DNA of 40,000 nucleotides from Aphanothece hegewaldii CCALA 016 (GTDB lineage: Bacteria > Cyanobacteriota > Cyanobacteriia > Cyanobacteriales > Microcystaceae), in NCBI RefSeq assembly GCF_003007785.1, contig NZ_PXOH01000014.1, forward strand, positions 79,961 to 119,960, read 5' to 3'. The notes below the pieces were generated by a model. It saw nothing but the letters and a program-made list of their open reading frames with translations, searched no databases and was not told where the DNA came from. The position numbers and the translations under genes were made by a program. Below, piece after piece: positions 8,813 through 29,107 of the stretch. The first letter of the stretch is position 1. Each line of letters starts with the position of its first letter.

Positions 8813-10024
8813 ATGCGATCAAGCTGGCGAATTGGTACTTTATTTGGTATTCCTCTTTATATTGATGCGTCTTGGTTGTTGATTTTAGTCTTTGTGACGC
8901 TGATTAATGCGGGAAACGTTACAGCAACAGGATTAACTCACGATAATTGGTTTTTAGGTGGATTTTTCGGGTTTTTATTGGCTTTGCTGTTGTTTGTTTC
9001 TGTTCTACTTCATGAATTAGGACATAGTTTAGTCGCTCGCGCACAAGGAATTAACGTTAAATCAATTACTTTGTTTCTGTTTGGCGGTCTTGCATCGATT
9101 GAAAAGGAGTCTCAACAACCTTTAGGGGCTTTGTCGGTTGCTATTGCCGGTCCTTTGGTTAGTTTGTCTCTTTTTGTCTTGTTTTCGGCACTTTCTCAGT
9201 TTTGGTCAAGTTCTACGATTATTGGTTTTCTCACCGAAGATTTAGCCAATTTGAATTTAGTTTTGGCTATTTTTAATCTTATTCCAGGTTTACCCCTTGA
9301 TGGTGGACAAATTTTAAAAGCTTTGGTTTGGAAAGCAACAGGCGATCGCTTAATGGGGATGCGTTGGGCTTCAGCGAGTGGTCAGATTTTAGGCTGGTTA
9401 GGAATGATTCTCGGTGGGTTGGTAGTAATTATAGTCGGTGATGTGGGCGGTTTATGGGTGTCTTTTATCGGCTGGTTTATTCTTCGCAATGCGACGGCTT
9501 ATGAACGTTTGACGGTTCTACAAGAAAGTTTACTCGATTTAACGGCATCTGATGCGATGAGTCACGATTTTAGAGTGGTTAATGCTCATCTGAGTATACA
9601 AGAATTTATTGAGACTTATCTTTTGTCTGGGTTAGCGACTCCAATGGTTTATTATGCGGCTTCTGATGGACGCTATCGCGGCATGATCGAGCAAAACGAA
9701 GTACAAGAGATTGAGCGTAGCCAATGGTCTAGTAAAACTTTATCAGAGATTGTTCATCCTTTGACTGTGATTCCATCAGTAACAGAAAAAACCCCTCTTG
9801 TTTCTGTGATTAAAGCCTTAGAAGCGAGTAAAGAACGTTATTTAACGGTTTTGTCTCCTGCTGGTGCGGTTTCTGGGGTGATTGATCGCGGTGATCTGGT
9901 GAAAGCGATCGCCCAAAAACAGAATATACCGATTACTGAAGCCCAAATCAAGCAAATTAAAAACGAGGGAACTTATCCAACTTATTTACAATTAAGTGCG
10001 ATCGCGCAAAGTCTGGAAAATTAG
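8813..10024 (+). CDS. Site-2 protease family (peptidase M50) with C-terminal tandem CBS domains
   Basis: HELGHSLVA (HExxH) lies in a TM helix, followed by NLIPGLPLDGG, and the C-terminal 130 aa look like a CBS pair. I chose the ATG at 8813 (MRSSWRIGTLFGIPLYID, a typical M50 N-terminus) rather than the TTG at 8660 in the track. Confidence 0.85.
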   Translation: MRSSWRIGTLFGIPLYIDASWLLILVFVTLINAGNVTATGLTHDNWFLGGFFGFLLALLLFVSVLLHELGHSLVARAQGINVKSITLFLFGGLASIEKESQQPLGALSVAIAGPLVSLSLFVLFSALSQFWSSSTIIGFLTEDLANLNLVLAIFNLIPGLPLDGGQILKALVWKATGDRLMGMRWASASGQILGWLGMILGGLVVIIVGDVGGLWVSFIGWFILRNATAYERLTVLQESLLDLTASDAMSHDFRVVNAHLSIQEFIETYLLSGLATPMVYYAASDGRYRGMIEQNEVQEIERSQWSSKTLSEIVHPLTVIPSVTEKTPLVSVIKALEASKERYLTVLSPAGAVSGVIDRGDLVKAIAQKQNIPITEAQIKQIKNEGTYPTYLQLSAIAQSLEN

Positions 10025-10097
10025 CTATCAGCTATTAGAACAATAACAAGTGATAGTAATTCTTCCTGCTTTCATACCTCATACTGATGACTGTAAA

Positions 10098-10123
10098 GGG
10101 TTTGGAGACCAAACCCCTACAAT
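10098..10123. repeat. Dispersed palindromic repeat, copy 1 (GGGTTTGGAGACCAAACCCCTACAAT)
   Basis: An exact 26-mer, identical to the copy at 22470..22495. The stem is gggtttgg/ccaaaccc. It lies 74 nt downstream of the M50 protease stop. Confidence 0.9.
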
Positions 10124-10608
10124 TTCTACGGATTTTATTTCATTAAAACCAAATGAGTCGCCGATGGAATGCTCTTAAATAGATTTGCAAACTGTTGTAA
10201 ATATTTGATACATTCTCTTTGCTAAATTTAACAATTATTTCAAAAATCGATGTTATGTAATGGTTAATTTATTGTGATTTTATGACAAAATCAGACAAAG
10301 AGATTTAAGAGAATTGATATAATGCAAGAGCAGAAAAAAGAGTTTAGACAATCAACATTAAGCTCGAAAAATCTGTCTAATGAGTGATCAATTAGTGTTG
10401 TTAATTGAACAATACTGGGTTGAATCGGAAAAATTAAGTATACATACTTAGCTAAACAAGGGGAATCATTAAAACAAAAATATGTTTTTGAAGGATTCTT
10501 CATTTTCTCCTGTTAATTAGTTATAGGGAGAAAAAATTTAAACGCTTATTGCAACCGCGATCGCTTACCCATCTAAATTAGCCCTACTACGTCTATGGAG
10601 AGTAGATA

Positions 10609-11745
10609 ATGAAAATTGCTGTAGCCAAAGAAAGTGACTTAGGAGAATTAAGAGTTGCACTCGTTCCCGATATCGTAGCCCGTCTCGTCAAACAAGGGTT
10701 AGACGTGATGGTACAAAATGACGCAGGTACTGGCTCATTTTTTGCGGATGAAGCTTACGCAGAAGCGGGTGCTACACTCGTTAATGATTCGGTCGCCCTC
10801 TGGCAAGAAGCCGATATCGTTCTGAAAGTGGCTCCCCCCAATGAAGACGAAATTAGAAGCCTCAAAGCTGGAACCGTTTTGATTAGTTTTCTAAACCCCT
10901 TAAGAAACCCAGAACGGATCAAACAATTAGCCGAGCAAAAAGTAACTGCTTTTAGCATGGAACTGATCCCGCGAACGAGCCGCGCTCAGAGTATGGATGC
11001 TCTATCTTCTCAAGCGAATATCGCAGGATATAAAGCCGCCGTCTTAGCTGCCGCTTATTTACCTAAATTATTCCCCATGATGACCACTGCGGCGGGAACC
11101 ATTCCCCCCGCTAAAGTTTTAGTCTTGGGAGCAGGAGTAGCCGGGTTACAAGCGATCGCCACCGCCCGCCGTTTAGGTGCTGTCGTCGAAGCATTTGATA
11201 TTCGTCCCCAAGTTAAAGAAGAAGTTCAAAGCGTTGGGGCGAAATTTATCGAAGTGACGATCGAAGAAGATACCGTCGCACACAATGGTTACGCGAAAGA
11301 AGTCAACACCAACACCCAAGATCGTATCAGAGAAGTTTTAACCGAACACATCAAAAAAGCAGATGTAGTCATTACAACCGCCCAAGTTCCGGGGAAAAAA
11401 GCCCCCGTCCTCGTCACCGAAGATATGGTAAACCAGATGAAACCAGGTGCAGTCGTAGTAGACTTAGCCGCCGAACAAGGTGGAAACTGTGCCTTTACCG
11501 AACCTGGTAGAAATATCAATCATAACGGTGTCACCATCTTAGGAACCCTGAATTTACCTGCTTCTGTTCCCACGAATGCCAGTCAGGTTTATGCCAAAAA
11601 CCTACAAACCTTAATTCAATACTTGATCAAGAACGATATGTTAAACCTTGATTTTGAGGATGACATTGTCAATGATTCTTGTGTAGCACATAATGGCGAA
11701 ATTCGCAACCAAAAAGTGAAAGATGCTTTGGCGGTTGCTGTCTAG
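10609..11745 (+). CDS. pntA: NAD(P) transhydrogenase subunit alpha, part 1 (dI domain)
   Basis: The 378-aa protein has the alanine-dehydrogenase/PNT fold: MKIAVAKE...RVALVP, the Rossmann motif VLVLGAGVAGLQAIATARRLGA, and TTAQVPGKKAP. Confidence 0.93.
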   Translation: MKIAVAKESDLGELRVALVPDIVARLVKQGLDVMVQNDAGTGSFFADEAYAEAGATLVNDSVALWQEADIVLKVAPPNEDEIRSLKAGTVLISFLNPLRNPERIKQLAEQKVTAFSMELIPRTSRAQSMDALSSQANIAGYKAAVLAAAYLPKLFPMMTTAAGTIPPAKVLVLGAGVAGLQAIATARRLGAVVEAFDIRPQVKEEVQSVGAKFIEVTIEEDTVAHNGYAKEVNTNTQDRIREVLTEHIKKADVVITTAQVPGKKAPVLVTEDMVNQMKPGAVVVDLAAEQGGNCAFTEPGRNINHNGVTILGTLNLPASVPTNASQVYAKNLQTLIQYLIKNDMLNLDFEDDIVNDSCVAHNGEIRNQKVKDALAVAV

Positions 11746-16665: not shown

Positions 16666-18225
16666 ATGAGTGAATTAACGACTGATATTGTTGTCATTGG
16701 AAGTGGCATCGGGGGTTTAAGTTGTGCTGCGTTACTTGCCCGCTATGGCTTTGAGGTGATGGTTTGTGAGAGTCATAGTATTGCTGGTGGTGCTGCACAT
16801 GGGTTCAAATATCAAGGATTTTTGTTTGATTCTGGCCCATCTTTGTATTCTGGTTTATCCTATAGTCCATCCGCTAACCCACTGCGACAGGTTCTCGATG
16901 CGATCGATGAAGATTTAGAATGGGTAAACTATGATACTTGGGGTTGTTGTTTACCCGAAGGCGATTTTAAGACAACGGTTGGAGCCGAGCAATTTTGTGA
17001 AGTTTTATTACGGCTACGGGGACAAGAAGCAGTCCAACAATGGCGAAAGTTACAACAAGTCATGAAACCCTATGCTGAAGCGGCTGTTGCGATTCCTCCT
17101 GCTGCAATTAGATTAGATTTAGGGGCGATTCTTACTACTGGGCGTTTTTTGCCAACACTTGCCTTACAAGCAGGAAATACGCTTAAATTAACGGGTGCTT
17201 TTGGAAGAATTCGAGATGAAGTGATTAGTGACCCATTTATCCGTAATTGGCTAGATTTATTGTGTTTTTTGCTATCGGGTTTACTGGCGGATGGAACTAG
17301 CGCGGCAGAAATGGCGTTTATGTTTGCTGATTGGTATCGTCCTGGGGTGGTTTTAGATTATCCTGTAGGGGGTAGTAGTGCGATTGTTAATGCGTTAGTA
17401 AGAGGAATTGAAAAGAAAAGGGGAAAAGTTTGTCTCAATGCACACGTAGCAGAAATTTTTATTCAATCTGGACACGCTACAGGAATCAAGTTACGCAATG
17501 GCGAAATCATCAAGGCTAAACGGGCGGTTATTTCTAATGCGTCGATTTGGGATACTCTAAAATTATTACCCAAGGATTCAGTATCAGATAGTTTTCGTCA
17601 AGAGCGTGAAGCAACACCTAAGTGTGATAGTTTTATGCACCTTCATTTAGGAATTGATGCAAGTCATTTACCTTCAGATTTAGCGTGTCATTATATTATT
17701 GTGAATGACTGGGAAAAGGGAATTACTGCACCACAAAATCTAATTTTAATTTCTATTCCTTCGATTTTAGATCCGTCTCTGGCACCACAGGGTAAACATA
17801 CCATTCATGTTTATACTCCCGGTAATGAACCCTATCAACTTTGGCAGGAAATGGATAGAAAAAGTATTGCATATCAACAACAAAAAGAAAATCGCTCTGA
17901 GGTAATGTGGCAAGCTTTAGAGAGAATCATTCCTGATATTCGTTCTCGTTGTGAAGTTACTTTAGTCGGAACACCATTAACTCACGAACGCTTTTTACGC
18001 CGTCATCACGGTTCCTATGGCCCTGCAATTGCCGCAGGTAAAGGCTTTTTCCCCAGTCCAAAGACTTCTATTTCGGGTTTATGGTGTTGTGGTGATTCGA
18101 CCTTTCCGGGTATTGGTTTACCTGCTGTTGCCGCAAGTGGCATGATTACCGCTAATACACTTGCATCAGTCTCGAAACATTTAGAGATGTTGAAAGAGAT
18201 AGAAATTAACAAATTATTTCGGTGA
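16666..18225 (+). CDS. FAD-dependent oxidoreductase of the phytoene desaturase / carotenoid isomerase (CrtISO-like) family
   Basis: The N-terminal dinucleotide-binding motif is DIVVIGSGIGGLSCAALLARYGFEVMVCESHSIAGG. The length (519 aa) and the C-terminal GDSTFPGIGLPAVAASG are typical of CrtI/CrtH-family amine-oxidase-fold enzymes. The substrate is not assignable. Confidence 0.75.
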   Translation: MSELTTDIVVIGSGIGGLSCAALLARYGFEVMVCESHSIAGGAAHGFKYQGFLFDSGPSLYSGLSYSPSANPLRQVLDAIDEDLEWVNYDTWGCCLPEGDFKTTVGAEQFCEVLLRLRGQEAVQQWRKLQQVMKPYAEAAVAIPPAAIRLDLGAILTTGRFLPTLALQAGNTLKLTGAFGRIRDEVISDPFIRNWLDLLCFLLSGLLADGTSAAEMAFMFADWYRPGVVLDYPVGGSSAIVNALVRGIEKKRGKVCLNAHVAEIFIQSGHATGIKLRNGEIIKAKRAVISNASIWDTLKLLPKDSVSDSFRQEREATPKCDSFMHLHLGIDASHLPSDLACHYIIVNDWEKGITAPQNLILISIPSILDPSLAPQGKHTIHVYTPGNEPYQLWQEMDRKSIAYQQQKENRSEVMWQALERIIPDIRSRCEVTLVGTPLTHERFLRRHHGSYGPAIAAGKGFFPSPKTSISGLWCCGDSTFPGIGLPAVAASGMITANTLASVSKHLEMLKEIEINKLFR

Positions 18226-18460
18226 TATGTTAGTTTTACAGACCACCGTGAAATGAATTTCTCATCGCCTAAGTCCATTGATGAAAGTTAAAAAAATAAT
18301 TCGCTGATCAAGTTAGTTCCATAGACCACCGTGAAATGAATTTCACGGCTTATAGCTAAAGACGGTTCAAACCGTCTCTCTATAAGCTCCTTAGTCCATT
18401 TTAATGGACTTGTGCTATGAGACAGAGAATTCATTCTCTGGCGGTCTAGATAATTTGATA
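18226..18460. repeat. Cluster of nested small hairpin repeats (SDR/MITE-like), cluster 1
   Basis: A 22-nt direct repeat agaccaccgtgaaatgaatttc occurs at 18240-18261 and 18323-18344. The unit 18323-18447 has imperfect terminal inverted repeats (agaccaccgtgaaatgaatttcacgg / cagagaattcattctctggcggtct). Inside it are the hairpins cttatag...ctataag, gacggttcaaaccgtc and agtccattttaatggact. Confidence 0.8.
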
Positions 18461-18469
18461 ATTTGTTGA

Positions 18470-18796
18470 CACTCCCCGCCCTAAAGGGCTAGGATTCTTA
18501 GGCTGCCCACTGCCTTAAACTTAGTTAACTAAGTTTTCGGTCTTACACGAGCAAATCTGATCAGCCTCGACTACACCTTTTACAGCAAGCCACTTAACGA
18601 GTCACTCCCGTAAGCGTAAATTCGGGTAAGCCCTACCCTATTTAATTATTTTTTGTCCTTGCCGTGTGGATTCATTTTAATACCATTGACGGTTCAGCAA
18701 CAAGAGTCTACGGAGTGTTTCTTGTTTCTTCACGCCTAGCAGGTCAACGACCAAATTAATTGTAGCACAAAGTCGTCATAAATGACGGGGTTTTTT
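18470..18796. repeat. Structured non-coding element, copy B (homologous to 15155..15372, inverted)
   Basis: No ORF of the listed size lies between 18279 and 19000. It begins with the hairpin gccc-taaa-gggc, in the same position as the gac-taaa-gtc hairpin on the reverse complement of copy A. It shares the cttaacgagt / ccgt..gcgtaa.tt / ttaattatt blocks with that reverse complement. It ends with a weak hairpin cgtca-taaa-tgacg followed by gggtttttt. Confidence 0.6.
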
Positions 18797-18999
18797 ACCC
18801 AATTTTTTGATAATTTTCACATTATTCTCTGGCAATCCTGAAAATTTAGAAAAATCTAAAAAAAGTTCACTCTTGAATGCACTATTTTTTGGACTTTTGA
18901 GAAAACCACAACAAATGTATTAATGTATATCTATTGACAGAGGGAAGCCAATAGAAAGGGAATTTAAGATATGAAGCGATAAATGTACTAAAAAAGACT

Positions 19000-20238
19000 A
19001 TGGGTGTCATTCAGTCCAGTTTTACGGCAACAGATAACGCTTTTCATGTAGAAGGCTACGAAAAAATCGAATTTAGCTTACTTTATGTCGATGGAGCATT
19101 TAATAAAGAAAATCCTGAAATTGCAGATAGCTATCGCAAATTAGGACGCTGTTTAATGATCGTGGATCAAACAGTCTACGAGATCTATGGCGAACAAATG
19201 CAAGACTATTTTGATTACCATGAGATTGAATTAACTGCTTTTCCAATTACGATCAGAGAAACAGATAAGACTCTAGATACTCTTAAATTAATCATTGATC
19301 AATTTGCCGATTTTGGTTTACTGCGAAAAGAACCTGTACTCGTTGTCGGTGGTGGTCTAATTACGGATGTAGCTGGTTTTGCTTGCTCAACCTATCGTCG
19401 TGCAACCAATTATATTCGAGTTCCCACAACTTTGATCGGGATGATCGATGCAAGTGTAGCGATCAAGGTTGCCGTTAATCATGGTAAGCTGAAAAACCGT
19501 CTAGGGGCTTATCACGCTTCACAAAAAGTTATTTTAGATTTCTCGTTTTTACGATCGCTGCCGATTGCTCAAATTCGCAATGGTATGGCAGAATTAATCA
19601 AAATTGCGGTTGTTTCTAATTCAAGCATTTTTCAAGCATTAGAGAAGTACGGCGAAGAGTTACTAAATACCCATTTCGGCTATCTTAACGGGACTCCAGA
19701 ACTCCGAGAAATTGGTCATCAACTTACCTACGATGCCATTAAGACGATGTTGGAACTAGAAGTACCCAACTTACATGAACTTGACCTAGATCGGGTGATC
19801 GCCTATGGACATACTTGGAGTCCCACACTAGAACTAACGCCCCAAACTCCCATGTATCACGGTCATGCGGTCAATATTGATATGGCTCTTTCCGCGACTA
19901 TTGCCCAACAAAGAGGTTATATTACTGTTGAAGAACGCGATCGTATTTTAGGTGTGATGAGTCGTATTGGTCTAGCCCTTGATAGCGACTATCTCACCAG
20001 CGAACTACTCTGGAAAGCCACCCAATCGATCAGCCGTACTCGTGATGGTTTACTTCGCGCTGCTGCCCCAAAACCCATCGGTAAGTGTTTCTTTATGAAT
20101 GATCTCACCCGTGAAGAATTAGATAATTCATTACTCTTACATCGGGCTATTTGTCAGAACTATCCACGTCAAGGTGATGGCGAAGAAATGTACATCAGTA
20201 TCAAAGAAGTTCAATCTAATTTGATGGAGACATACTGA
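19000..20238 (+). CDS. mysA: Desmethyl-4-deoxygadusol synthase (sugar-phosphate cyclase, DHQS-like), first step of MAA biosynthesis
   Basis: The 412-aa protein has the N-terminus [20 protein letters not shown], the nucleotide loop [14 protein letters not shown] and the metal-site region GHTWSP...HGHAVNIDM. These match the DDGS/EEVS-type cyclases that head mys clusters. Context: an OMT and an ATP-grasp gene follow immediately. Confidence 0.9.
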
Positions 20239-21032
20239 TGGCGCGTCCAGTTACACCCTTGGGAATTTTAGCCAAAACCTTAGAGTCGATTGTTCAAAAA
20301 ATTGATACAACGGATACAGTTTTAAAAGATGAGTTATGCTATGCGTATCAAATTGCGTCTGGACTCGATCCTTATCTAGAAGACTGTACCACACCCGACT
20401 CGGAGCCATTACGCCAACTGGTGACTAAGACTCAGCAAGAAGAATGGGGCCAAAATTGGCAAAAACAGGTTACTGAAGTTCCTCTAGAACAGGAAATGCT
20501 ATCAGGACACGTGGAAGGGCAAACACTAAAAATGTTTGTCAGGATGACCCAGGCGACCCGAATTTTAGAAATTGGGATGTTTACTGGCTATTCTGCGTTA
20601 GCGATGGCAGAAGCGTTACCTGAGCATGGACAAGTCGTAGCCTGTGAAGTTGATCCCTATGTGGCTCAATTCGCTCAACACTGTTTTGATAATTCGCCTC
20701 ATGGTCACAAAATCAAGGTTAAAGTTGCACCAGCCCTCTTGACAATGCGACAGTTATCTGATATGGGCGAGTCCTTTGATTTCGTGTTTATCGATGCAGA
20801 TAAAGGGGGTTATATCGATTACTTCAACTTTCTGTTAGAGACGAATTTATTAGCACCAAACGGAATTATCTGTGTTGATAATACCTTGCTGCAAGGCGAA
20901 CCTTATCTAAGTGAGAAATCTGCTAATGGTTCTGCGATCGCACAGTTCAATCGTCACGTCGCTAATGATCCCCGTGTTGAACAGGTATTATTACCCTTGC
21001 GCGATGGCTTAACGATTATAAGACGAGTCTGA
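20238..21032 (+). CDS. mysB: SAM-dependent O-methyltransferase forming 4-deoxygadusol
   Basis: A caffeoyl-CoA-OMT-like class I methyltransferase (ILEIGMFTGYSALAMAEALP, FDFVFIDADKGGY). Its ATG overlaps the mysA TGA (TGATG at 20236-20240), which implies translational coupling. Confidence 0.9.
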   Translation: MARPVTPLGILAKTLESIVQKIDTTDTVLKDELCYAYQIASGLDPYLEDCTTPDSEPLRQLVTKTQQEEWGQNWQKQVTEVPLEQEMLSGHVEGQTLKMFVRMTQATRILEIGMFTGYSALAMAEALPEHGQVVACEVDPYVAQFAQHCFDNSPHGHKIKVKVAPALLTMRQLSDMGESFDFVFIDADKGGYIDYFNFLLETNLLAPNGIICVDNTLLQGEPYLSEKSANGSAIAQFNRHVANDPRVEQVLLPLRDGLTIIRRV

Positions 21033-21040
21033 GGTGAATC

Positions 21041-22435
21041 ATGGATAATCTTTTTAATTCATCGGCTGATTCAAGTTCATTAAGTAAGGGATGGTTGCGA
21101 TCGATACAAGGGTCATCACTGAAAACGCTAGGGACACTGTTATTGTTATTATTGATGTTGCCCTTCAATTTAGCACTGACTCTCACTGCTTTAGTTTGGA
21201 GTTGGGTTTGGCCATTTAGAAAGCGAGTGATAGCATCTAACCCTAAAACTGTAATGATTAGTGGTGGAAAGATGACGAAAGCCTTGCAGTTAGCGCGATC
21301 GTTTTATATGGCAGGGCATCGAGTCATATTAGTCGAAACCCATAAATATTGGCTAGTCGGTCATCGCTACTCATGGGCAGTCGATCGCTTTTATACCATT
21401 CCCGACCCCAAACAAGATACAGAAGGCTATCTACAAGGATTACTCGATATCGCTCAAAAAGAACAGGTCGATCTCTATGTACCCGTCTGTAGCCCTGTAG
21501 CCAGTTATTATGATGCTTTGGCTAAAGAATTGCTGGCTCAACAGTGTGATGTTTTCCATGAAGATGCTAAAACGGTACAACAACTAGATGATAAGTATCA
21601 GTTTGCTCAAGCTGCCACCAACTTAGGTTTAACCGTTCCCAAATCTTTTAAAATCACGCATCCTCAGCAAGTTCTCGATTTTGATTTCTCTAAGGAAACT
21701 CATCCTTATATCATCAAAAGCATTCCCTATGATTCAGTAAATCGTCTAAACCTGACTAAGCTTCCCTGTGCATCCCGTCAAGATACTGAAATGTTTGTCA
21801 ATTCCTTACCCATTTCAGAAACTAAACCTTGGGTGATGCAGGAGTTTATCACAGGTCAAGAGTACTGTGTTCATAGTACAGTAAAGAATGGTGAATTACG
21901 GGTGTATTGCTGCTGTGAATCTTCCGCTTTTCAGGTGAATTACGAGGCTGTAGATATACCAGAAATCAAGCAATGGGTGACTCAATTTGTACAGGGAATG
22001 AAACTAACGGGACAAATGTCCTTTGATTTCATCCGTACCCCAACAGGTGAAGTATATGCGATCGAGTGTAACCCCCGTACCCACTCTGCGATCACATTGT
22101 TCTACAATCATCCCGACTTAGCAAAAGCCTACCTCGATCCAGAACCTTTCTCAGAACCCCTAGAACCGTTAGCCTCAGCCCGTCCTACCTATTGGACATA
22201 TCATGAATTTTGGCGACTGGTGACGCATTTAAGTTCACTTCAAGAGGTTGCGTATCGTCTTGGTATTTTGTTCAAGGGCAAAGATGCTATTTTTAGTTGG
22301 AATGATCCACTACCTTTTCTGATGGTTCATGGGTGGCAAATTCCGTTACTGTTGCTTAAGAGCTTACGACAGGGTAAAGACTGGATTCGGATCGACTTTA
22401 ATATTGGTAAGCTAGTTCAGATGGGGGGAGATTAA
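21041..22435 (+). CDS. mysC: ATP-grasp ligase (mycosporine-glycine synthase)
   Basis: The 464-aa protein has a hydrophobic N-terminus, then VMISGGKMTKALQLARSFYMAGHRVILVETHKYWLVGHRYS and IECNPRTHSA. This pattern is characteristic of Ava_3856/NpR5598-type MysC. Confidence 0.88.
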   Translation: MDNLFNSSADSSSLSKGWLRSIQGSSLKTLGTLLLLLLMLPFNLALTLTALVWSWVWPFRKRVIASNPKTVMISGGKMTKALQLARSFYMAGHRVILVETHKYWLVGHRYSWAVDRFYTIPDPKQDTEGYLQGLLDIAQKEQVDLYVPVCSPVASYYDALAKELLAQQCDVFHEDAKTVQQLDDKYQFAQAATNLGLTVPKSFKITHPQQVLDFDFSKETHPYIIKSIPYDSVNRLNLTKLPCASRQDTEMFVNSLPISETKPWVMQEFITGQEYCVHSTVKNGELRVYCCCESSAFQVNYEAVDIPEIKQWVTQFVQGMKLTGQMSFDFIRTPTGEVYAIECNPRTHSAITLFYNHPDLAKAYLDPEPFSEPLEPLASARPTYWTYHEFWRLVTHLSSLQEVAYRLGILFKGKDAIFSWNDPLPFLMVHGWQIPLLLLKSLRQGKDWIRIDFNIGKLVQMGGD

Positions 22436-22469
22436 GGTTTAATTTATGGAAATAACTCCAAATCTTTTT

Positions 22470-22495
22470 GGGTTTGGAGACCAAACCCCTACAAT
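22470..22495. repeat. Dispersed palindromic repeat, copy 4 (GGGTTTGGAGACCAAACCCCTACAAT)
   Basis: An exact copy of 10098..10123. It lies in the 101-nt mysC-MATE spacer, 35 nt after the mysC stop and 42 nt before the MATE ATG. Confidence 0.9.
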
Positions 22496-22536
22496 CATTG
22501 TTCTTCTTTGGCTCATTCTTTCTCATTTCCGCTTAC

Positions 22537-23895
22537 ATGACCTCTACTTTACTGCGATCCAACCTTAAATCTGAAATCCGCGAATTTTTAAAACTCGCCA
22601 TCCCTCTTGCCAGCGCTCAAGTTGCCCAATCAGCGATCGGATTTGCTGATACAGTGATGATGGGTCGCATGGGAGCCGATGTTTTAGGAGCAGGTGGACT
22701 AGCAGCAATGATCTTCCTCTCGATTATGACAACTGCGAGTGGCATTGTCATGGGTGTGAGTCCCCTAATTGCCGAAGCTTTTGGTTCTGAACAAAAAAAT
22801 CGCATTGAACAAATTGCTCGTCAGGGAATTTGGTTAACATTATTAATTTCACTCCCTTTGATCATCATTACGGGACATCTTGACATTTGGTTAAAACACA
22901 CGGGACAGTCAGATAAAACCCTACAATATGTCAACACTTACTTAGATATTATGCGGTGGGGCTTATTACCTGGTATGGGTTTTGCTGCACTGCGTGCCAC
23001 TGTTTCGGCTCTTTCTCAAGCACGTCCAATTATGATCATCGTCGTAGGTGGAACGGTTTTTAATATTGTCTGGAATTATATCTTAGGGTTTGGTAAATTT
23101 GGCTTTCCACAATTAGGATTAGCTGGATTAGCAATAGCGAGTGTTTCGGCATTATGGGGAATGTTTATCGCCTTAGCACTATATGTCTTAATTAATCAAA
23201 ACCTGAAAAACTATCGTATTTTCCAAAGACTTCATCAAGTTAAACCTCAAATTCTCTGGGAATTAGTTTGGGTTGGTGTCCCTATTGGCATCTTTACGGG
23301 CTTAGAAACGGGCTTTTTTATGGTGATCATGTTTTGGATGGGAACATTAGGAACTGAGGTTTTAGCAGCCCATCAAGTCGTGTTGCAGACTATTGTTATG
23401 GTGTTTATGGTACCGTTAGGAATTTCTTACGCGACTACGGTGCGAGTTGGTTTATGGTTGGGACGAAACGATCGCATCAAAATTAAACAAGCGGCATGGG
23501 TTAGTATGAGTATTAGTACACTTTTTACCCTCGGTGTATCGATCGCTTTTTTGCTATTTCCTAAACAGATTATTGGGATTTATTTAGATGTGCAGAATCC
23601 CGACAATGCTGCGATCATCGCCATTGCCTTACCACTGCTCCTGACTGCTGCGATCGCTCAAGTCCTAGACGGTCTTCAAAAGGCGGTTTATGGCGCATTA
23701 CAAGGTCTTCAAGATACACAAATTCCCATGTTCATGAATATACTAGGCTATTGGGGTATTGGTCTATCGGTGGGTTATGGACTAGGTTTTGGTTTAAACT
23801 TAGGTGGTGTTGGTTTGTGGATTGGGCAATTAGTTGCTACTGTCGTGGTTGCGGTTCTCTTTATCTGGCGATTTAATCATCTAAGTCAAGAGTGA
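22537..23895 (+). CDS. MATE family efflux transporter
   Basis: A 12-TM protein with the NorM/DinF-like N-terminus EFLKLAIPLASAQVAQSAIGFADTVMMGRMG and an internal repeat. I chose the ATG at 22537 because the track start at 22468 would translate through the palindromic repeat. Confidence 0.85.
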   Translation: MTSTLLRSNLKSEIREFLKLAIPLASAQVAQSAIGFADTVMMGRMGADVLGAGGLAAMIFLSIMTTASGIVMGVSPLIAEAFGSEQKNRIEQIARQGIWLTLLISLPLIIITGHLDIWLKHTGQSDKTLQYVNTYLDIMRWGLLPGMGFAALRATVSALSQARPIMIIVVGGTVFNIVWNYILGFGKFGFPQLGLAGLAIASVSALWGMFIALALYVLINQNLKNYRIFQRLHQVKPQILWELVWVGVPIGIFTGLETGFFMVIMFWMGTLGTEVLAAHQVVLQTIVMVFMVPLGISYATTVRVGLWLGRNDRIKIKQAAWVSMSISTLFTLGVSIAFLLFPKQIIGIYLDVQNPDNAAIIAIALPLLLTAAIAQVLDGLQKAVYGALQGLQDTQIPMFMNILGYWGIGLSVGYGLGFGLNLGGVGLWIGQLVATVVVAVLFIWRFNHLSQE

Positions 23896-25148
23896 AGTAA
23901 TTCTTCAAACAAAGATAAATAACGACCTGCTTGTGTTAATAAATTAAATTCCCGTTCGGCTTTTTCTCGTGCTTGTAAACTCAGTTTTTGAGAGCGTTCT
24001 GGGTTTTCGATCACCCACGCAATACCATTCGCTAAATCTTCACTACTCAAACACTCTGCACGATATCCATTCTGTTGATGATCGACCAAATCCTTTAAGC
24101 CCGTTGTATCAAAACAAACTACAGGCGTACCACAGGCTAAAGATTCAGATGCAGTTTGTCCGAAAACTTCTTCAGTCGATGGCACAATCATGACATCAGC
24201 CGATGAATAAAGTAGAGCTAGTTTACGCTCATCATCGATTTTACCTAAATAATGAATCGGGAAACCTAATTCTATAGTTTTTTCAGGTTGAGAAGCCCCA
24301 AATACTATTAACTCTATTTTATTTTGTAATGAAGAATGACTCAGTTTTTGTAATGCTGCTTGTAATAAAGCAAATCCTTTTCGATGATTATTAATGGCGT
24401 TAATTGCCCCAAATAAAACTAAATGCTTATCTTGTGGCAGGTTTAGTAAGTTTCTTGCAGTTTTTTGCTCCGTTGGATGATATAACTCAATATCTAAACC
24501 ATGATGAATGACTCTAATATCTTTATCGCAAAATAGTGAACTCGATCTAGCACATTGGGCCAGCCAATGACTCGGTGTAACAATGGTAAACTTTAGATCT
24601 CTCCATGCTTTAGCTTTGCGCTGCCATGTCAAACGAGATAAATCCCAACTGCGATCGCTTTTTAAGATTGGACACTTACCACAAGATTTTGTATAGCCAT
24701 CACATCCTTGAGAATAGCAACATCCGCCCGTAAATGCCCACAAATCAGCAAATGTCCAAACGATCGGTTTTTTGATTTTTGCCAGTGCTTCAATTGGTAA
24801 AAAACCATCACATATCCAGCGCAAATTAACAATATCGGGAGCAAGTTTATTAATTTGTGGATTAATAATATCTGGAAGCCATTGAATCGGAAAAAGTACC
24901 GCACCCTTTTGTCGATTTTGATAAAATTTTAGAGGTAAAGCATCCAAGTTTCGACGCGCTTTCCAGATTTTTTGAGCAAATTGATTCGGTGCGCTCACTA
25001 AAGTCGGATCATCCATCCGTTTATCTTGAACGAGCATTCTAGAATCAATTCCTAACTTAAGAAAGCCTTGATGGAGTCGATAAGCTGAACGAGAAGCACC
25101 CGCACCACCTACAGGATCATAGCTACTAACAATTAATGGTTTAATCAT
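23886..25148 (-). CDS. Glycosyltransferase family 4 (GT-B fold)
   Basis: A 420-aa protein. The N-terminal GGAGASRSAYRLHQG and the C-terminal EX7E region PSTEEVFGQTASESLACGTPVV are typical of GT4 retaining transferases. Its 3' end overlaps the MATE 3' end by 10 nt. Confidence 0.85.
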   Translation of the reverse strand: MIKPLIVSSYDPVGGAGASRSAYRLHQGFLKLGIDSRMLVQDKRMDDPTLVSAPNQFAQKIWKARRNLDALPLKFYQNRQKGAVLFPIQWLPDIINPQINKLAPDIVNLRWICDGFLPIEALAKIKKPIVWTFADLWAFTGGCCYSQGCDGYTKSCGKCPILKSDRSWDLSRLTWQRKAKAWRDLKFTIVTPSHWLAQCARSSSLFCDKDIRVIHHGLDIELYHPTEQKTARNLLNLPQDKHLVLFGAINAINNHRKGFALLQAALQKLSHSSLQNKIELIVFGASQPEKTIELGFPIHYLGKIDDERKLALLYSSADVMIVPSTEEVFGQTASESLACGTPVVCFDTTGLKDLVDHQQNGYRAECLSSEDLANGIAWVIENPERSQKLSLQAREKAEREFNLLTQAGRYLSLFEELLHS

Positions 25149-25155
25149 TATTAAT

Positions 25156-26016
25156 TTAAAGGCGATGAGGGAATTTCAAAAAATTAGGGTTTTGTTCCCC
25201 TCTACTCGTAGGAGAGGGGCTAGGGGTGAGGTCAATTTTAGGAAAAATTTCACAATCAATTGATTCACCAGATCGAAGCGTATCAAGTGAATTAAATTCT
25301 GAAATTCCAATTTCTTCAATCGGTTGAAACGGCCAAGTTTGCGGACTTGGATCATAAACAACATCATCACCAGTCCAATTTGTGACAATAGCACGCCTTG
25401 ACTTATAAGTTGTATTTCCTATTGAATGATGAATCGTCTGGAAATGATGAACTAAAGCATCACCTGGCTCCATATCCCAATATAAAATATCAGAATATGA
25501 CGGCTCAGAAAACCAAGAAACATTAGAATTTTCTCGTAAATCTTTATTCCATAAATGAGAGCCTTTAATATATTCTAATCGCCCATTTTCTTGATTGACT
25601 GGATCTAAAGCCAACCAAATTTTACAACATTTCCACCCCTTAACTGGCCAATAAGGTAGATCATTGTGCCATCCCACATGACTATCGGCTTTTGCTTTTT
25701 TCACAAAAAAACCGTCACACAAAAAGTTAATTGTTTCTGATTCCATAATTTGAGCAGCAACCCTCGCTAAAGGAGATTTAAACACTAAATCACGGAAATC
25801 ATTATCTTTTAGCCAAAGTCCATAATCATGAACAACATCACCTGTTTTTAGTTTTCTTCCTCTGACTCCATTACTATTTAATAAATTGCGATCAACGGCT
25901 TTTCGCATCCGTTCTACCCAATAATCATCAACAACATTTTTAAGACAGATCACACCGTCTCGCTTAAAGTTTTCTACTTCTTGACGGCTAATTTTACTGC
26001 TATTTGCTATCAACAT
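25156..26016 (-). CDS. Phytanoyl-CoA dioxygenase (PhyH) family Fe(II)/2-oxoglutarate oxygenase, a candidate MysH-like MAA tailoring enzyme
   Basis: A 286-aa protein with the HxD facial-triad start in VGWHNDLPYWP, a distal His in HHFQTIHHS and a Arg in SRRAI. The MysH assignment comes from family membership plus cluster context only. Confidence 0.75.
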   Translation of the reverse strand: MLIANSSKISRQEVENFKRDGVICLKNVVDDYWVERMRKAVDRNLLNSNGVRGRKLKTGDVVHDYGLWLKDNDFRDLVFKSPLARVAAQIMESETINFLCDGFFVKKAKADSHVGWHNDLPYWPVKGWKCCKIWLALDPVNQENGRLEYIKGSHLWNKDLRENSNVSWFSEPSYSDILYWDMEPGDALVHHFQTIHHSIGNTTYKSRRAIVTNWTGDDVVYDPSPQTWPFQPIEEIGISEFNSLDTLRSGESIDCEIFPKIDLTPSPSPTSRGEQNPNFLKFPHRL

Positions 26017-26371
26017 TCTATGTTTTATCCTTTTTAAGCTTGATTAATGCTTTGAGCTAATGAAGTGACGATATGACAAATTGTCTCTTTGTTGAGCCTA
26101 CTTGATTAATATGGATTTCGCATCTAACTAAAGATTAATTCAAAATATCTGACTTATGACAGTTGTATTTCTTGTTAAATAACCAATATTTTTATAAGTT
26201 TAAATAACAAAAAAGCTCAAAAAATAATTTGCTATTTCTCAATTTTTGATAGATGATATATTGAGAGAAAGTTGGCTTACTAAATAAGAAGTTTTAGTAA
26301 AAATCTAACCGCTTCTAAGAAATTTGATAGATGACAGTAAAGTTAATTATTTGAGTTAAGGAGATTTATCT

Positions 26372-27400
26372 ATGTCAGTGCTTCGTATCCTTCATGTAGT
26401 TGGGTCTGCACAAAATGAATTTTACTGCGATCTATCCCGTCTTTATGCTCAAGACTGTCTCAGCGCAACAGCAGATCGATCGCGTTATGATTTCCATATT
26501 GCATACATCACACCCGATGGTCTATGGCGTTTTCCATCATCCCTTAATAGAGAAGATATCAATACAGCGAAACCGATGTCTTTAGCTGATGCGATACAGT
26601 TCATCACTTCAAAAAATATTGATCTAGTATTGCCACAAATGTTCTGCACTGCGGGAATGACTTATTACCGCGCATTGTTCGACTTGCTAGGTATTCCTTA
26701 CATTGGTAATACTCCAGATGTAATGGCGATCGCACTCCACAAAGCTAGAGCAAAAGCGATCGTTAGTGCAGCAGGTGTTAAAATTCCTCATAGTGAATTA
26801 CTTCGTCGCGGAGATGTCCCAACTATTAAACCTCCAGTTGTCGTCAAACCTGAATCTTCAGCTAATTCTTTAGGGGTTACTTTAGTGACAAATAGTGCTG
26901 ACTATGAAACTGCACTAAAAAAAGCCTTTGAACATTCAAAGGAGGTCATTGTAGAAGAATTTATCGAACTAGGTCGAGAAGTCAGAGGCGGTATAATTGT
27001 CAAAGATGGCGAATTAGTCGGTTTACCCCTTGAAGAATATTTAGTTATTCCCGATGAAAACCCCATTCGCACCTATGCTGATAAACTTAAAGCTACGGAC
27101 GAAGGTGAATTAAGTTTTGCGGCTAAAGATAATAAGAAATCTTGGATCGTAGATCCTAAAGACCCTGCAACGGAACGAGTTCAAGAAATAGCTAAAAAAT
27201 GTCATCAAGCTTTAGGCTGTCGTCATTATAGTCTTTTTGATTTCCGCATCGATCCACATGGACAACCTTGGTTTATCGAAGCAGGGTTATATTGTTCTTT
27301 TGCCTCTAAAAGTGTCATTTCTACGATGGCAAAAGCTTCGGGAATACCTCTTAATGAGTTATTTAGTAAAATGATCGATGAAACGTTAATCTCAGTTTGA
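26372..27400 (+). CDS. mysD: D-Ala-D-Ala-ligase-like ATP-grasp enzyme that attaches the second amino acid to mycosporine-glycine
   Basis: A 342-aa protein with the Ddl-type layout (ILHVVGSA...LVLPQMFCTAGMTYYRALFDLLGIPYIGN, VVVKPESSANSLGVTLV, EEFIELGREVRGG). It sits in a mys cluster, as does NpF5597 in Nostoc punctiforme. Confidence 0.8.
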   Translation: MSVLRILHVVGSAQNEFYCDLSRLYAQDCLSATADRSRYDFHIAYITPDGLWRFPSSLNREDINTAKPMSLADAIQFITSKNIDLVLPQMFCTAGMTYYRALFDLLGIPYIGNTPDVMAIALHKARAKAIVSAAGVKIPHSELLRRGDVPTIKPPVVVKPESSANSLGVTLVTNSADYETALKKAFEHSKEVIVEEFIELGREVRGGIIVKDGELVGLPLEEYLVIPDENPIRTYADKLKATDEGELSFAAKDNKKSWIVDPKDPATERVQEIAKKCHQALGCRHYSLFDFRIDPHGQPWFIEAGLYCSFASKSVISTMAKASGIPLNELFSKMIDETLISV

Positions 27401-27433
27401 GAAACGATTAATTTGATAGATTACTAGAAGAAA

Positions 27434-27805
27434 TTAGAGTAATCTTTTTCCTAATTCTAAAAATTCTGCTGCATGAGCAATCTGTTCTCGCGCTTGAGAT
27501 TCAGTAATATTCGAGTCGATACTATAATCACCTTTATTTCGTTTATCTTGAGCATCAATGAGATATCGATGATACTCTACAGGAACTGCCCCTTTACCAG
27601 CAAATTCTCGACCAAATGCCGAAATAACGGCAGAATGCTTAGAAAACGTTAAATTTTGATTTAATAATAAAGCTTCTGCCACATAAAACATCGTGTAATA
27701 AGCTCTTGAAGCAGCAAAATCATATAAACCATTATCTGCTAATAAATTCGCGGCGGTTAAACTTTCTTCAGCTTTATTGAGTAGTGCAGCTTGTTCGGGA
27801 GTCAC
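27434..27805 (-). CDS. HEPN domain protein (toxin-like partner of the MNT/HEPN pair)
   Basis: A 123-aa all-helical protein with the HEPN-type motif AQDKRNKGDY. Its ATG overlaps the upstream MNT stop by 4 nt. Confidence 0.8.
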   Translation of the reverse strand: MTPEQAALLNKAEESLTAANLLADNGLYDFAASRAYYTMFYVAEALLLNQNLTFSKHSAVISAFGREFAGKGAVPVEYHRYLIDAQDKRNKGDYSIDSNITESQAREQIAHAAEFLELGKRLL

Positions 27806-28122
27806 AGTAATATTCCTTCACGACGTACATTCATATAAAAAGGGCTATTTTCTAGTTGATATCGTGACTTAGAGGCAAAATTTCTAGAAATAAGAGTATC
27901 ATATTTTAAACACAGTTCACTAATATACTGACTGGTGCGATTAATTTCAGTCCAAGCATCAACAGCATCGTTGAGAACGACTAAAATATCGATATCAGAA
28001 TCGGGATCAGCGTCACCTCTTGCTTGTGAGCCATATAAAATAAGATAAGCTAATCGATCGCCGTATAATTTTTGGAAGTATTGACGGAGTTGGTCTAAAA
28101 TCTCGGTTAAATTGGGATTCAT
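27802..28122 (-). CDS. Nucleotidyltransferase (MNT) domain protein
   Basis: LILYGSQARGDADPDSDIDILVV is the GSxxRG...DxD minimal-nucleotidyltransferase signature. I chose the Met at 28122 (MNPNLTEILDQL), giving 106 aa. The track start at 28185 adds 21 poorly supported residues. Confidence 0.8.
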   Translation of the reverse strand: MNPNLTEILDQLRQYFQKLYGDRLAYLILYGSQARGDADPDSDIDILVVLNDAVDAWTEINRTSQYISELCLKYDTLISRNFASKSRYQLENSPFYMNVRREGILL

Positions 28123-28237
28123 CTTAATTTCTATTTTTCTAAATAATGTTTGTTTGAATAAATCTCTACTGAGAAGGATTAACAAAAAACATATAAAATG
28201 CTAATGTTTCACTAAAAATTAACAAATATTCTATTCA

Positions 28238-29107
28238 ATGATTCCTGAAGTTATTCTAACAGTGAGAGCGCGATTAGGTGAAAGACCGTGTTGGGATGCT
28301 CAAGCTCAATGTCTCTACTGGGTTGATATCTATAATCATCGTGTGCATCAGTTCGATCCGAAAACAGAACAAGATCGCTTTTTCGATGTGGGTGAGGTGG
28401 TGACTTGTTTTGCACCTGCCTCTAATAACCGTTTAATCATTGCGCTGCGTCAGCATCTTGCTTTTTTAGATACTCAAACGGGTACAGTGACACGCTTGGT
28501 AGAGTTAGATAAACCGTCCGACATTCGATTTAATGATGGGAAATGCGATCGCTTGGGACGTTTTTGGGTGGGGACGCTGTGTATTTCTGGCCCAAACGCA
28601 TCTCTTTACCGTTATGATCCTGATGGTACTCTAAATGAGATGGAAACGGGTTTAAATATTTCTAATGGACTGGGTTGGAGTCTAGATCAACAAACATTTT
28701 ATCTAACAGATAGTAAGCCAAAAATTATCTATGCTTATGATTTTGATCTAAATCGGGGTAATATCGAAAACCGACGAGTATTCATCGATCTATCTGAAGA
28801 ATCTTTTGGGCCTGATGGCTTAACTGTTGATAGCGAGGGCTGTATCTGGTCTGCCATGTGGGATGGATGGTGTATCATCCGTTTTGATCCAAATGGTAAA
28901 GAAATGTTACGGGTGTCTTTACCTGTGCCACGTCCGAGTAGTTGTACCTTTGGTGGGCCAGCTTTAACAACACTTTATATTACAACTGCTTCTATTGGTT
29001 TAAGTGAAAAAGAAATTCAAGATAGTATTTTTTCAGGAGATCTATTTGCTGTAGAAACTCCCGTAAAAGGTACGCATACTAACTATTTTGGAGTTGGTAA
29101 AGGTTAG
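28238..29107 (+). CDS. SMP-30/gluconolactonase/LRE family lactonase (six-bladed beta-propeller)
   Basis: LGERPCWDAQAQCLYWVDI, RFNDGKCDRLGRFWVGT, NGLGWS and GPDGLTVDSEGCIWSAMW are the hallmark blades and metal ligands of regucalcin-type lactonases. Confidence 0.88.
   Translation: MIPEVILTVRARLGERPCWDAQAQCLYWVDIYNHRVHQFDPKTEQDRFFDVGEVVTCFAPASNNRLIIALRQHLAFLDTQTGTVTRLVELDKPSDIRFNDGKCDRLGRFWVGTLCISGPNASLYRYDPDGTLNEMETGLNISNGLGWSLDQQTFYLTDSKPKIIYAYDFDLNRGNIENRRVFIDLSEESFGPDGLTVDSEGCIWSAMWDGWCIIRFDPNGKEMLRVSLPVPRPSSCTFGGPALTTLYITTASIGLSEKEIQDSIFSGDLFAVETPVKGTHTNYFGVGKG

Follow-up and report, generated by a model that had tools for sequence, protein, structure and literature searches.

A predicted route to a glycosylated palythine-type MAA in Aphanothece hegewaldii CCALA 016, with an in-cluster MATE gene restricted to one lineage

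A seven-gene locus of Aphanothece hegewaldii CCALA 016 probably encodes a route to a glycosylated palythine-type MAA, the product being predicted from the genes, and carries a MATE transporter gene as a lineage-restricted insertion. The window analyzed here is a stretch of 40,000 nucleotides of this genome (contig NZ_PXOH01000014.1, positions 79,961 to 119,960). ORF checks and profile searches placed each of the seven ORFs in a defined family (Table 1), in the order mysA-mysB-mysC-MATE on the plus strand, mysH followed by mysG on the minus strand, and mysD again on the plus strand. All seven genes had been proposed, with the same coordinates and families, in an initial annotation, and all are confirmed. 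That annotation also described the GT4 and PhyH genes as a convergent pair on the minus strand; the strand assignment stands, but the two genes are co-directional and together converge on the MATE gene.

Table 1. Features of the mys locus and their coordinates in the window
Feature	Coordinates	Strand	Assignment	Basis
mysA upstream region, 774 nt	18226..18999		Presumed mysABC promoter	Repeats; promoter role inferred
mysA	19000..20238	+	Desmethyl-4-deoxygadusol synthase (DDGS)-type sugar-phosphate cyclase	DHQ-synthase fold; PF01761, PF24621
mysB	20238..21032	+	O-methyltransferase	Methyltransf_3, PF01596, E 1.8e-51
mysC	21041..22435	+	ATP-grasp ligase, predicted glycine addition to 4-deoxygadusol	NF005315, 493.8 bits (cut-off 406 bits)
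mysC-MATE spacer, 101 nt	22436..22536	+		Without terminator-like hairpin
MATE gene	22537..23895	+	NorM-type MATE efflux transporter, 452 aa	PF01554; TIGR00797, 238.5 bits (cut-off 147.4 bits)
mysG	23886..25148	-	GT4 hexosyltransferase, predicted C7-OH glycosylation of palythine	MysG1 orthology
mysH	25156..26016	-	Predicted Fe(II)/2-oxoglutarate dioxygenase, disubstituted MAAs to palythines	PhyH; PDB MysH matches
mysH/mysD divergent intergenic region, 355 nt	26017..26371		Presumed divergent promoters (inferred)	
mysD	26372..27400	+	D-Ala-D-Ala-ligase-like (Ddl-like) mycosporine-glycine:amino-acid ligase	PF07478

Core genes and organization of the locus

As judged from sequence matches, the core mysABCD set is complete, with a cyclase predicted to be of the DDGS rather than the EEVS type, an O-methyltransferase, a MysC ATP-grasp ligase and a Ddl-like MysD. 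MysA matched PDB entry 5TPR, an Anabaena variabilis structure labeled 3-dehydroquinate synthase that we take to be a DDGS, with an E value of 3.7e-188, as against 1e-72 for 4P53, which is labeled "Cyclase" and is presumably ValA, an EEVS. The mysA stop and mysB start codons share one nucleotide (TGATG). Relative to the proteins of Nostoc sp. UHCC 0302, MysA is 70% identical, MysB 60%, MysC 63% and MysD 77%, the last in comparison with the Thr-preferring MysD1.

The same block of seven genes, at 90-97% amino-acid identity, is found in Chroococcus sp. FPU101 and in one metagenome contig from ENA, and because it recurs there the arrangement is not a chance juxtaposition. Against two relatives, all seven genes have dN/dS values of 0.06-0.2. 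They seem to be transcribed as three units, namely mysABC with the MATE gene, mysH-mysG, and mysD. Upstream of mysA we found a pair of 33-nt direct repeats (18229-18261 and 18312-18344) as well as inverted repeats, and the orthologous spacer in locus L001 is only 141 nt long. A promoter scan of this upstream region performed no better than chance, so that any promoter role assigned to it is presumptive, and a motif comparison of the mysH-mysD intergenic region with the mysA upstream region gave no significant common motif.

Collinear and tightly coupled mysA-mysB-mysC genes are common to the window and to the mysABCD cluster of Nostoc punctiforme and the mysABCE cluster of A. variabilis, and the window shares the Ddl-like ligase MysD with canonical clusters. 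It differs from the canonical four-gene clusters in having three extra genes between mysC and mysD and in a product that is predicted to be tailored by palythine formation and glycosylation. The mysABCJ1D1G1H cluster of UHCC 0302 (CP151099, L090; PMC11378024) has six enzyme families in common with the window, MysA, B, C, D, G and H, at 60-77% identity, and there, too, mysH-mysG is a close-coupled operon convergent on the remainder of the cluster. The product class of that cluster has been demonstrated to be hexosyl-palythine. The window further differs in that MysJ, a GT14-like "Branch" transferase, is absent and a MATE gene sits in roughly its position, in the placing of mysH-mysG, which lies past mysD in UHCC 0302 but between mysC and mysD here, and in its host, a unicellular chroococcalean cyanobacterium and not a Nostoc.

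The tailoring enzymes MysH and MysG

The resemblance of the PhyH-family oxygenase to MysH, already suggested in the initial annotation, is borne out by structure matches and by its conserved ligand positions. The full-length product matched the MysH structures 9pze and 9c9n with an E value of 1e-113 and 60% identity over 265 columns, while the next-best PDB match, SnoK, reached only 3e-9. Identities among its homologues drop sharply from at least 48%, all of them cyanobacterial, to at most 40%. An alignment of 10 MysH-clade proteins shows no variation at H117, D119, H196/H197 and R207/R208, and by analogy with the PhyH family in general we take these residues to be the 2-His-1-carboxylate iron ligands and the 2OG-binding Arg. 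MysH of Nostoc linckia NIES-25 and the PDB MysH entries (9pze, 9c9n, 9ci4 and 9pyo) are alike in these His/Asp/His and Arg positions, and differ from the window protein in its approximately 20 extra C-terminal residues, a non-conserved tail peculiar to this strain. Identity to UHCC 0302 MysH is 61%. On these grounds the protein is assigned as a clear MysH orthologue, and it likely turns shinorine and porphyra-334 into palythine-Ser and palythine-Thr, respectively. MysH was described from N. linckia NIES-25, according to the citation of Chen et al. (2021) in PMC10666671, and its reference function is taken from PMC10666671.

The GT4 protein aligned without gaps to MysG1 (P0427) of UHCC 0302, which is encoded in the main cluster of CP151099, with 285 of 417 residues identical (68%). 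A catalytic EX7E motif is present as EEVFGQTASE (residues 326-335), whose E335 is shared by all of 84 homologues; at position 327 each of these has either E or D. In a simple neighbor-joining tree the window protein falls into one clade with MysG1 and all other mys-linked GT4s (bootstrap only 66/100), and within it into a subclade with bootstrap 100/100. Among the 84 homologues in the tree, mys genes occur within 10 kb only for GT4s that are at least 67% identical, and these form, with MysG1 and the window protein, a single clade; none of the homologues of 66% identity or less, which come from more than 60 genomes, has mys genes that near. Membership of this clade does not guarantee mys linkage, since a GT4 of Scytonema sp. 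NUACC26 (75% identical) belongs to it and yet has no adjoining mys genes. The order mysH then mysG is also found in L090 (UHCC 0302) and in L008-L020.

That the GT4 instead acts on exopolysaccharide or envelope glycans and lies near mys genes by chance is very improbable, although the family is large, paralogues of 51-60% identity occur in most cyanobacteria, a sister-clade GT4 of Nostoc sp. NIES-4103 is located among polysaccharide genes, and all NCBIfam matches of the window protein (to BshA, EpsE and WcaC-type models) are below threshold. Against such a role stand its position inside the mys-linked clade with MysG1, its close translational coupling to mysH, which it immediately follows after a gap of 7 nt and to which it is likewise coupled in UHCC 0302, and the loss of hexosylation in E. 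coli when mysG1 was omitted (PMC11378024). Arsin et al. (2024, RSC Chem Biol; PMC11378024), who describe the UHCC 0302 cluster, reported from heterologous expression in E. coli with and without mysG1 that MysG1 adds alpha-D-glucose to C7 of palythine-Thr. The statement in the initial annotation that no transferase had yet been assigned to MAA glycosylation is thus out of date, while its nomination of the GT4 as a candidate MAA glycosyltransferase agrees with the grouping with MysG1 and every other mys-linked GT4. By its orthology to MysG1, the window MysG is predicted to place a hexose on the C7-OH of a palythine, which we consider likely; at this locus the donor sugar may be one other than the glucose of the E. 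coli experiments.

The identities of the two tailoring enzymes to those of UHCC 0302, 61% and 68%, lie inside the range of the core enzymes (60-77%), which indicates co-inheritance.

The MATE gene

The MATE gene most likely starts at ATG 22537, from which the product is equal in length to, and 100% identical with, the NCBI A. hegewaldii CCALA 016 protein of 452 aa; the mechanically assigned TTG at 22468 is an improbable start. The protein matched NorM-VC with an E value of 7e-56 and conserves the equivalents of E255 and D371, which, after He et al. 2010, we take to be the NorM coupling residues. At the 3' end the gene overlaps that of mysG by 10 nt, a convergent arrangement that could cause transcriptional interference.

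The initial annotation proposed a dedicated exporter to the sheath. Such a pump would carry hexosyl-palythine across the cytoplasmic membrane to the mucilage or sheath and be co-expressed with mysABC. The gene does lie within the cluster and on the mysABC strand, 101 nt past mysC with no terminator-like hairpin found in that spacer, and is probably co-transcribed with mysABC. The coupling residues are intact. Three genomes have retained the gene with dN/dS values of 0.10-0.13, which denote purifying selection, and it was present in their common ancestor, since its dS matches that of its neighbors. MATE exporters are encoded within the sxt, cyr and gnt clusters of cyanobacteria, glycosylated flavonoids are carried by plant MATEs, and the glycosylated MAAs of Nostoc commune are extracellular, all of which we count toward an exporter role. 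Also in favor, transporters of unstated family are annotated in the mys clusters of Brasilonema spp. (mysABC-methyltransferase-transporter-dioxygenase-mysE; PMC9918943) and Hyella patelloides LEGE 07179 (PMC8472315). Compared by description only, these resemble the window in having a transporter gene between mys genes, but they use MysE or are without MysG.

Synteny beyond the closest relatives does not bear out the proposal of a dedicated exporter. Only the mys clusters of the window, L001/L097 and L006 contain a MATE gene, which limits the in-cluster gene to this species and two close relatives; the sister cluster L004 lacks one, as do 14 Nostoc-type mysG/mysH loci, L090 included. At about 12 loci that carry 66-80% identical homologues there were no mys genes, and two of these loci represent a conserved LysR-SDR-MATE module. 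The known in-cluster exporters SxtF/SxtM, CyrK and GntT are alike in that a 12-helix MATE gene lies inside a biosynthetic cluster for small polar metabolites; unlike them, the window gene is not conserved across producers of its compound class, and it has no specific sequence relationship to them. Curated models of toxin-exporting MATEs were not matched, GntT (NF041358) scoring 24 bits against a cut-off of 525. The 120 best homologues are at least 63% identical, and many have no organism label; no second protein labeled A. hegewaldii is among them, and the gene appears to be the ordinary copy of this genome and not a specialized duplicate. A pump specialized for a glycosylated MAA is therefore, in our assessment, unlikely.

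The more probable reading is a NorM-type gene for general multidrug or toxin efflux, relocated or acquired into the 33-nt space between the convergent mysC and mysG and without a part in MAA biology. In L004 the ends of mysC and mysG are only 33 nt apart at this very position, the linkage to mys genes is confined to one lineage, many cyanobacteria carry members of the family, 64-80% identical and in unrelated surroundings, and the top-scoring models and structures are those of NorM proteins. On the other hand, a lone insertion in operon orientation, without a recognizable terminator or promoter of its own, resembles recruitment, and the gene has been kept over a divergence of about 0.3-0.4 in dS. 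Whichever its role, the MATE gene is the only new element of the cluster, a lineage-specific insertion or retention in the interval from mysC to the mysG 3' end.

Predicted product and place among mys clusters

The proposal in the initial annotation of a locus for a glycosylated palythine-type MAA is supported by the orthologies of MysH and MysG. In the proposed route MysA and MysB would produce 4-deoxygadusol, to which MysC would add glycine to give mycosporine-glycine. Addition of Thr or Ser by MysD would yield porphyra-334 or shinorine, oxidative removal of the glycyl substituent by MysH would give palythine-Thr or palythine-Ser, and MysG would attach one hexose to the C7 hydroxyl of either. 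The MATE protein is by its features a canonical cation-coupled antiporter of the NorM type, and its gene was inserted or retained at this place in a narrow lineage only.

A tblastn search with MysJ1 (PF02485 "Branch", GT14-like) found homologues in six Nostoc loci and none in the 40-kb window. Since a second transferase of the MysJ type is absent from the window, a mono-hexosyl palythine is expected, and the end product is likely mono-hexosyl palythine-Thr or -Ser. Either amino acid may be used by the window MysD, since MysD1 and MysD2 of UHCC 0302 are 84% identical and yet differ in their preference for Thr or Ser. If Thr is used, the predicted product would be the 450 Da compound obtained from the UHCC 0302 cluster.

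The locus departs only modestly from a cluster type already known, both tailoring enzymes having already been identified in Nostoc between 2021 and 2024, and the presence of a MATE gene, in one lineage, is its sole unusual part. Were this gene an exporter, its product would carry hexosyl-palythine out into the mucilage that surrounds a unicellular, colony-forming cyanobacterium and would be a convergent counterpart of the plant MATEs that move glycosylated UV-screening flavonoids.

Gene content and organization of the cluster

All seven open reading frames claimed by the initial annotation are present where it placed them, and searches against Pfam and NCBIfam confirmed their families. Compared with the PDB, the mysA-encoded cyclase matched entry 5TPR with an E value of 3.7e-188 and entry 4P53 with one of 1e-72. 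These entries carry the PDB labels '3-dehydroquinate synthase' and 'Cyclase', and we take them to be the Anabaena variabilis DDGS and the EEVS ValA, respectively; since 5TPR is far ahead of 4P53, the earlier designation of the cyclase as 'DDGS-type' is, given those identities, right. No solved relatives of MysC or MysD were found in the PDB at the thresholds applied.

Features of the window and their coordinates
Feature	Position	Strand	Remarks
CitMHS-family ORF	194-940		matches C-terminal part of domain profile only
c-di-AMP riboswitch RF00379	1042-1193	+	73.5 bits (gathering score 38)
CitMHS/ArsB-family transporter gene	1427-2770
620-aa ORF with CARDB domain	4174-6036	-
Repeat region upstream of mysA	18229-18433		33-nt direct repeat (18229-18261, 18312-18344; 91% identical) and 31-nt inverted arms
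DHQ-synthase-fold cyclase (mysA)	19000-20238	+	Pfam/NCBIfam
Methyltransf_3 O-methyltransferase (mysB)	20238-21032	+	start overlaps preceding stop by one base
MysC-type ATP-grasp (mysC)	21041-22435	+	NF005315, 493.8 bits (cut-off 406)
MATE transporter	from 22537	+	ATG 22537 is the most likely start; 452 aa
GT4 glycosyltransferase (mysG)	23886-25148	-
PhyH dioxygenase (mysH)	25156-26016	-
D-Ala-D-Ala-ligase-like protein (mysD)	26372-27400	+
HEPN gene	27434-27805	-
Nucleotidyltransferase (MNT) gene	27802-28185	-	4-nt overlap with HEPN gene

The GT4 and PhyH genes had been described as a convergent pair on the minus strand. The strand is correct, but the two genes are co-directional, mysH preceding mysG with a gap of 7 nt. 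Gene spacing by itself suggests three transcription units in the cluster. Counts from a promoter and terminator scan of positions 18200-28300 were at or below shuffled expectation, and as to operon boundaries the scan supports nothing beyond the missing hairpin after mysC. Neither the Rfam nor the tRNA scan gave a match within the cluster. A regulatory motif common to the region upstream of mysA and the divergent region of mysH and mysD was sought and rejected, the only common words being AT-rich and about 2 SD above shuffles. Across the 40 kb of the window, a 21-mer from the direct repeat upstream of mysA occurs at the two repeat copies only. The spacer between crtISO and mysA measures 774 nt in the window versus 141 nt in ENA contig ERZ1066124 NODE_40, and its greater length suggests that a small element was inserted.

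The tailoring genes mysG and mysH

Expansion of mys clusters by a GT4 and a PhyH gene has already been published (Chen 2021, as relayed in the review PMC10666671; Arsin et al. 2024, PMC11378024). Arsin et al. transferred the mysABCJ1D1G1H cluster from Nostoc sp. UHCC 0302 to E. coli and found that glycosylation was lost upon omission of the GT4 gene mysG1; MysJ is a GT14-like 'Branch' protein and not a transporter (PMC11378024). The statement of the initial annotation that the MAA glycosyltransferase was unassigned is thus outdated. The window GT4 is identical to MysG1 at 285 of 417 positions (68%) in a gap-free alignment and possesses the EX7E motif; an exact look-up of its sequence gave no record. 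For the other window proteins, identity to the UHCC 0302 counterparts is 60-77%, and the values for MysG (68%) and MysH (61%) lie inside this range, so the tailoring genes have kept pace with the core in their divergence.

To survey the GT4 family we scanned one genome per species and searched 80 GT4 loci, each with 10-kb flanks, with the window proteins. With one exception, GT4s at least 67% identical to the window GT4 adjoin mys genes, whereas mys genes are lacking within 10 kb of those 51-66% identical (>60 genomes); one of the latter, a paralogue in Nostoc sp. NIES-4103, is surrounded by polysaccharide genes. Chroococcus sp. FPU101 carries the same seven genes with the same flanks as the window, and a JGI genome (L004; GT4 86% identical) has mysABC, mysH-mysG and mysD ordered as in the window. 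Nostoc MAGs and strains resemble UHCC 0302 in having mysABCD followed by convergent mysG-mysH, some with MysJ between mysH and mysG. Both the GT4 and the PhyH gene are therefore syntenic with mys genes in relatives, and the proposed association stands for the two of them. A neighbor-joining tree built from 84 sequences places the window protein, MysG1 and every mys-linked GT4 in a single 19-member clade (bootstrap 66/100), and the window subclade is supported at 100/100. A generic EPS transferase was considered and, on phylogeny and synteny, rejected as very unlikely.

The exception is a GT4 of Scytonema sp. NUACC26 (L092, identical to L007; positions 10001-11278), which is 75% identical to the window protein and lies inside the MysG clade, yet neither mys genes nor mysH nor a further glycosyltransferase gene occur within 10 kb of it. 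The gene could be an orphan or belong to a discontiguous arrangement such as the Helsinki group describes. In a published survey, proteins of 40% identity or above were counted as 'MysG homologues'; the appearance of mys linkage only from about 67% suggests a functional MysG clade much narrower than that definition.

Residues 143-159 of the GT4 contain a C-x5-C-x6-C-x2-C motif (C143, C149, C156 and C159) that is invariant in 84/84 GT4 homologues and may bind a structural metal in the N-terminal domain. The family varies at positions 144 (C or H) and 326 (E or Q), the C and E of the window protein being minority states found in roughly 28-30 of the 84 sequences.

The PhyH protein aligns end to end with the PDB entries named 'Fe/2-OG dependent dioxygenase MysH' (E = 1e-113, 60% identity); the next-best solved protein, SnoK, reaches only 3e-9. 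Among 5.8 billion proteins searched, homologue identities run from 48 to 91% and then drop to 40% or less, and all named matches in the upper group are cyanobacterial. Residues H117, D119, H196/H197 and R207/R208 are invariant across the MysH clade. The initial PhyH/MysH-like call is borne out by the PDB alignment and these invariant residues, and on sequence grounds the protein is a MysH orthologue. The 3' end of mysH (25156-25225, minus strand) encodes a C-terminal extension of some 20 non-conserved residues, PSPSPTSRGEQNPNFLKFPHRL, which is missing from all nine other aligned MysH-clade proteins; its coding end and the start of mysG are 7 nt apart.

The embedded MATE gene

Glycosylated MAAs accumulate in the sheath or mucilage, and the MATE had been put forward as their dedicated exporter. 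The 452-aa protein has 100% identity with the MATE annotated in Aphanothece hegewaldii CCALA 016, which makes this the source organism, and is a canonical NorM-type transporter (TIGR00797, 238.5 bits against a cut-off of 147.4; NorM-VC, E = 7e-56). It conserves the acidic residues aligned to E255 and D371 of NorM-VC, presumably the coupling residues. A Wzx- or MurJ-like flippase was considered and rejected, the best matches being NorM models and structures.

That the MATE has genuinely been recruited as an MAA exporter we consider rather unlikely. The gene is intact, lies 101 nt after mysC without a terminator-like hairpin between them, and is under purifying selection (dN/dS of 0.10-0.13 versus two relatives); its dS is in line with that of neighboring genes, so the common ancestor of the window and these two relatives already had it. 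The expected synteny, however, largely failed to appear, the MATE lying inside the mys cluster in three close genomes only (the window, Chroococcus sp. FPU101 and the ENA contig). In L004, the next relative, mysC and mysG converge on a gap of only 33 nt where the window has the MATE, and none of the Nostoc-type mys clusters of the GT4 survey contains a MATE. We lean modestly toward a general efflux gene relocated by chance. The family is widespread in cyanobacteria (64-80% identity), and about 12 homologue loci examined outside the window clade had no mys genes. Among the best 120 MATE matches, many of which lack an organism name, only one protein is labeled A. hegewaldii; the window MATE looks like the genome's ordinary copy and not a specialized duplicate.

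Among named homologues, the nearest to the window MATE lie in a conserved LysR-SDR-MATE module of Gloeocapsa sp. BRSZ and Leptolyngbya ohadii (loci L087, 6177-9371, and L089, 6231-9374), whose SDR and LysR proteins are 88% and 78% identical between the two. The UHCC 0302 cluster also has a LysR-SDR pair nearby, but a link to this module was rejected, there being no similarity at 1e-15. The coding 3' ends of the convergent MATE and mysG overlap by 10 nt (23886-23895) with no terminator-like structure predicted, and the two genes may interfere in transcription or through antisense effects. Transporter genes in the mys clusters of Brasilonema (PMC9918943) and Hyella (PMC8472315) are mentioned in passing with the family unnamed, and in our literature search no paper connected MAAs with a MATE or another named exporter.

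Flanking loci and predicted product

The HEPN/MNT pair directly 3' of mysD looks like a toxin-antitoxin module. At this site Chroococcus sp. FPU101 and the ENA contig have instead genes for a TetR-domain protein and a fatty-acid desaturase, neither of which occurs anywhere in the window. In L004 (5896-7668) an FGE-sulfatase-domain gene and a PF03547 (Mem_trans/auxin-efflux-carrier family) transporter gene adjoin mysD convergently; this transporter family is different from MATE. Elsewhere in the window the RF00379 riboswitch lies upstream of the CitMHS/ArsB-family gene and is preceded by the CitMHS-family ORF. The 620-aa CARDB ORF, which also has weak PAP2 and vanadium-chloroperoxidase N-terminal matches, may encode an acid-phosphatase or haloperoxidase-like surface protein.

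By orthology, MysA and MysB would produce 4-deoxygadusol, MysC would convert it to mycosporine-glycine, MysD would add Thr or Ser, MysH would yield palythine and MysG would place a hexose on the C7-OH. Since MysJ is absent from the window, a mono-hexosyl palythine is expected. It would absorb at 320 nm and have a mass of 450 Da with Thr, as the hexosyl-palythine-Thr of PMC11378024, or of 436 Da by calculation with Ser. The window MysD may use either amino acid, because MysD1 and MysD2 of UHCC 0302 are 84% identical and yet differ in this preference.

The locus belongs to a known cluster type, of which it is a variant from a new host order, distinctive in its rearranged gene order, its lack of MysJ and its embedded MATE of uncertain relevance. 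If the MATE were an MAA exporter, it would provide a handle on sunscreen secretion and could raise titres in heterologous MAA production. With this locus the MysG/MysH type of glycosyl-palythine cluster reaches beyond Nostoc to a chroococcalean, whose MysJ-free cluster should make a single mono-hexosylated product, and the definition of MysG tightens from the published 40% threshold to GT4s that share about 67% identity or more with that of the window.
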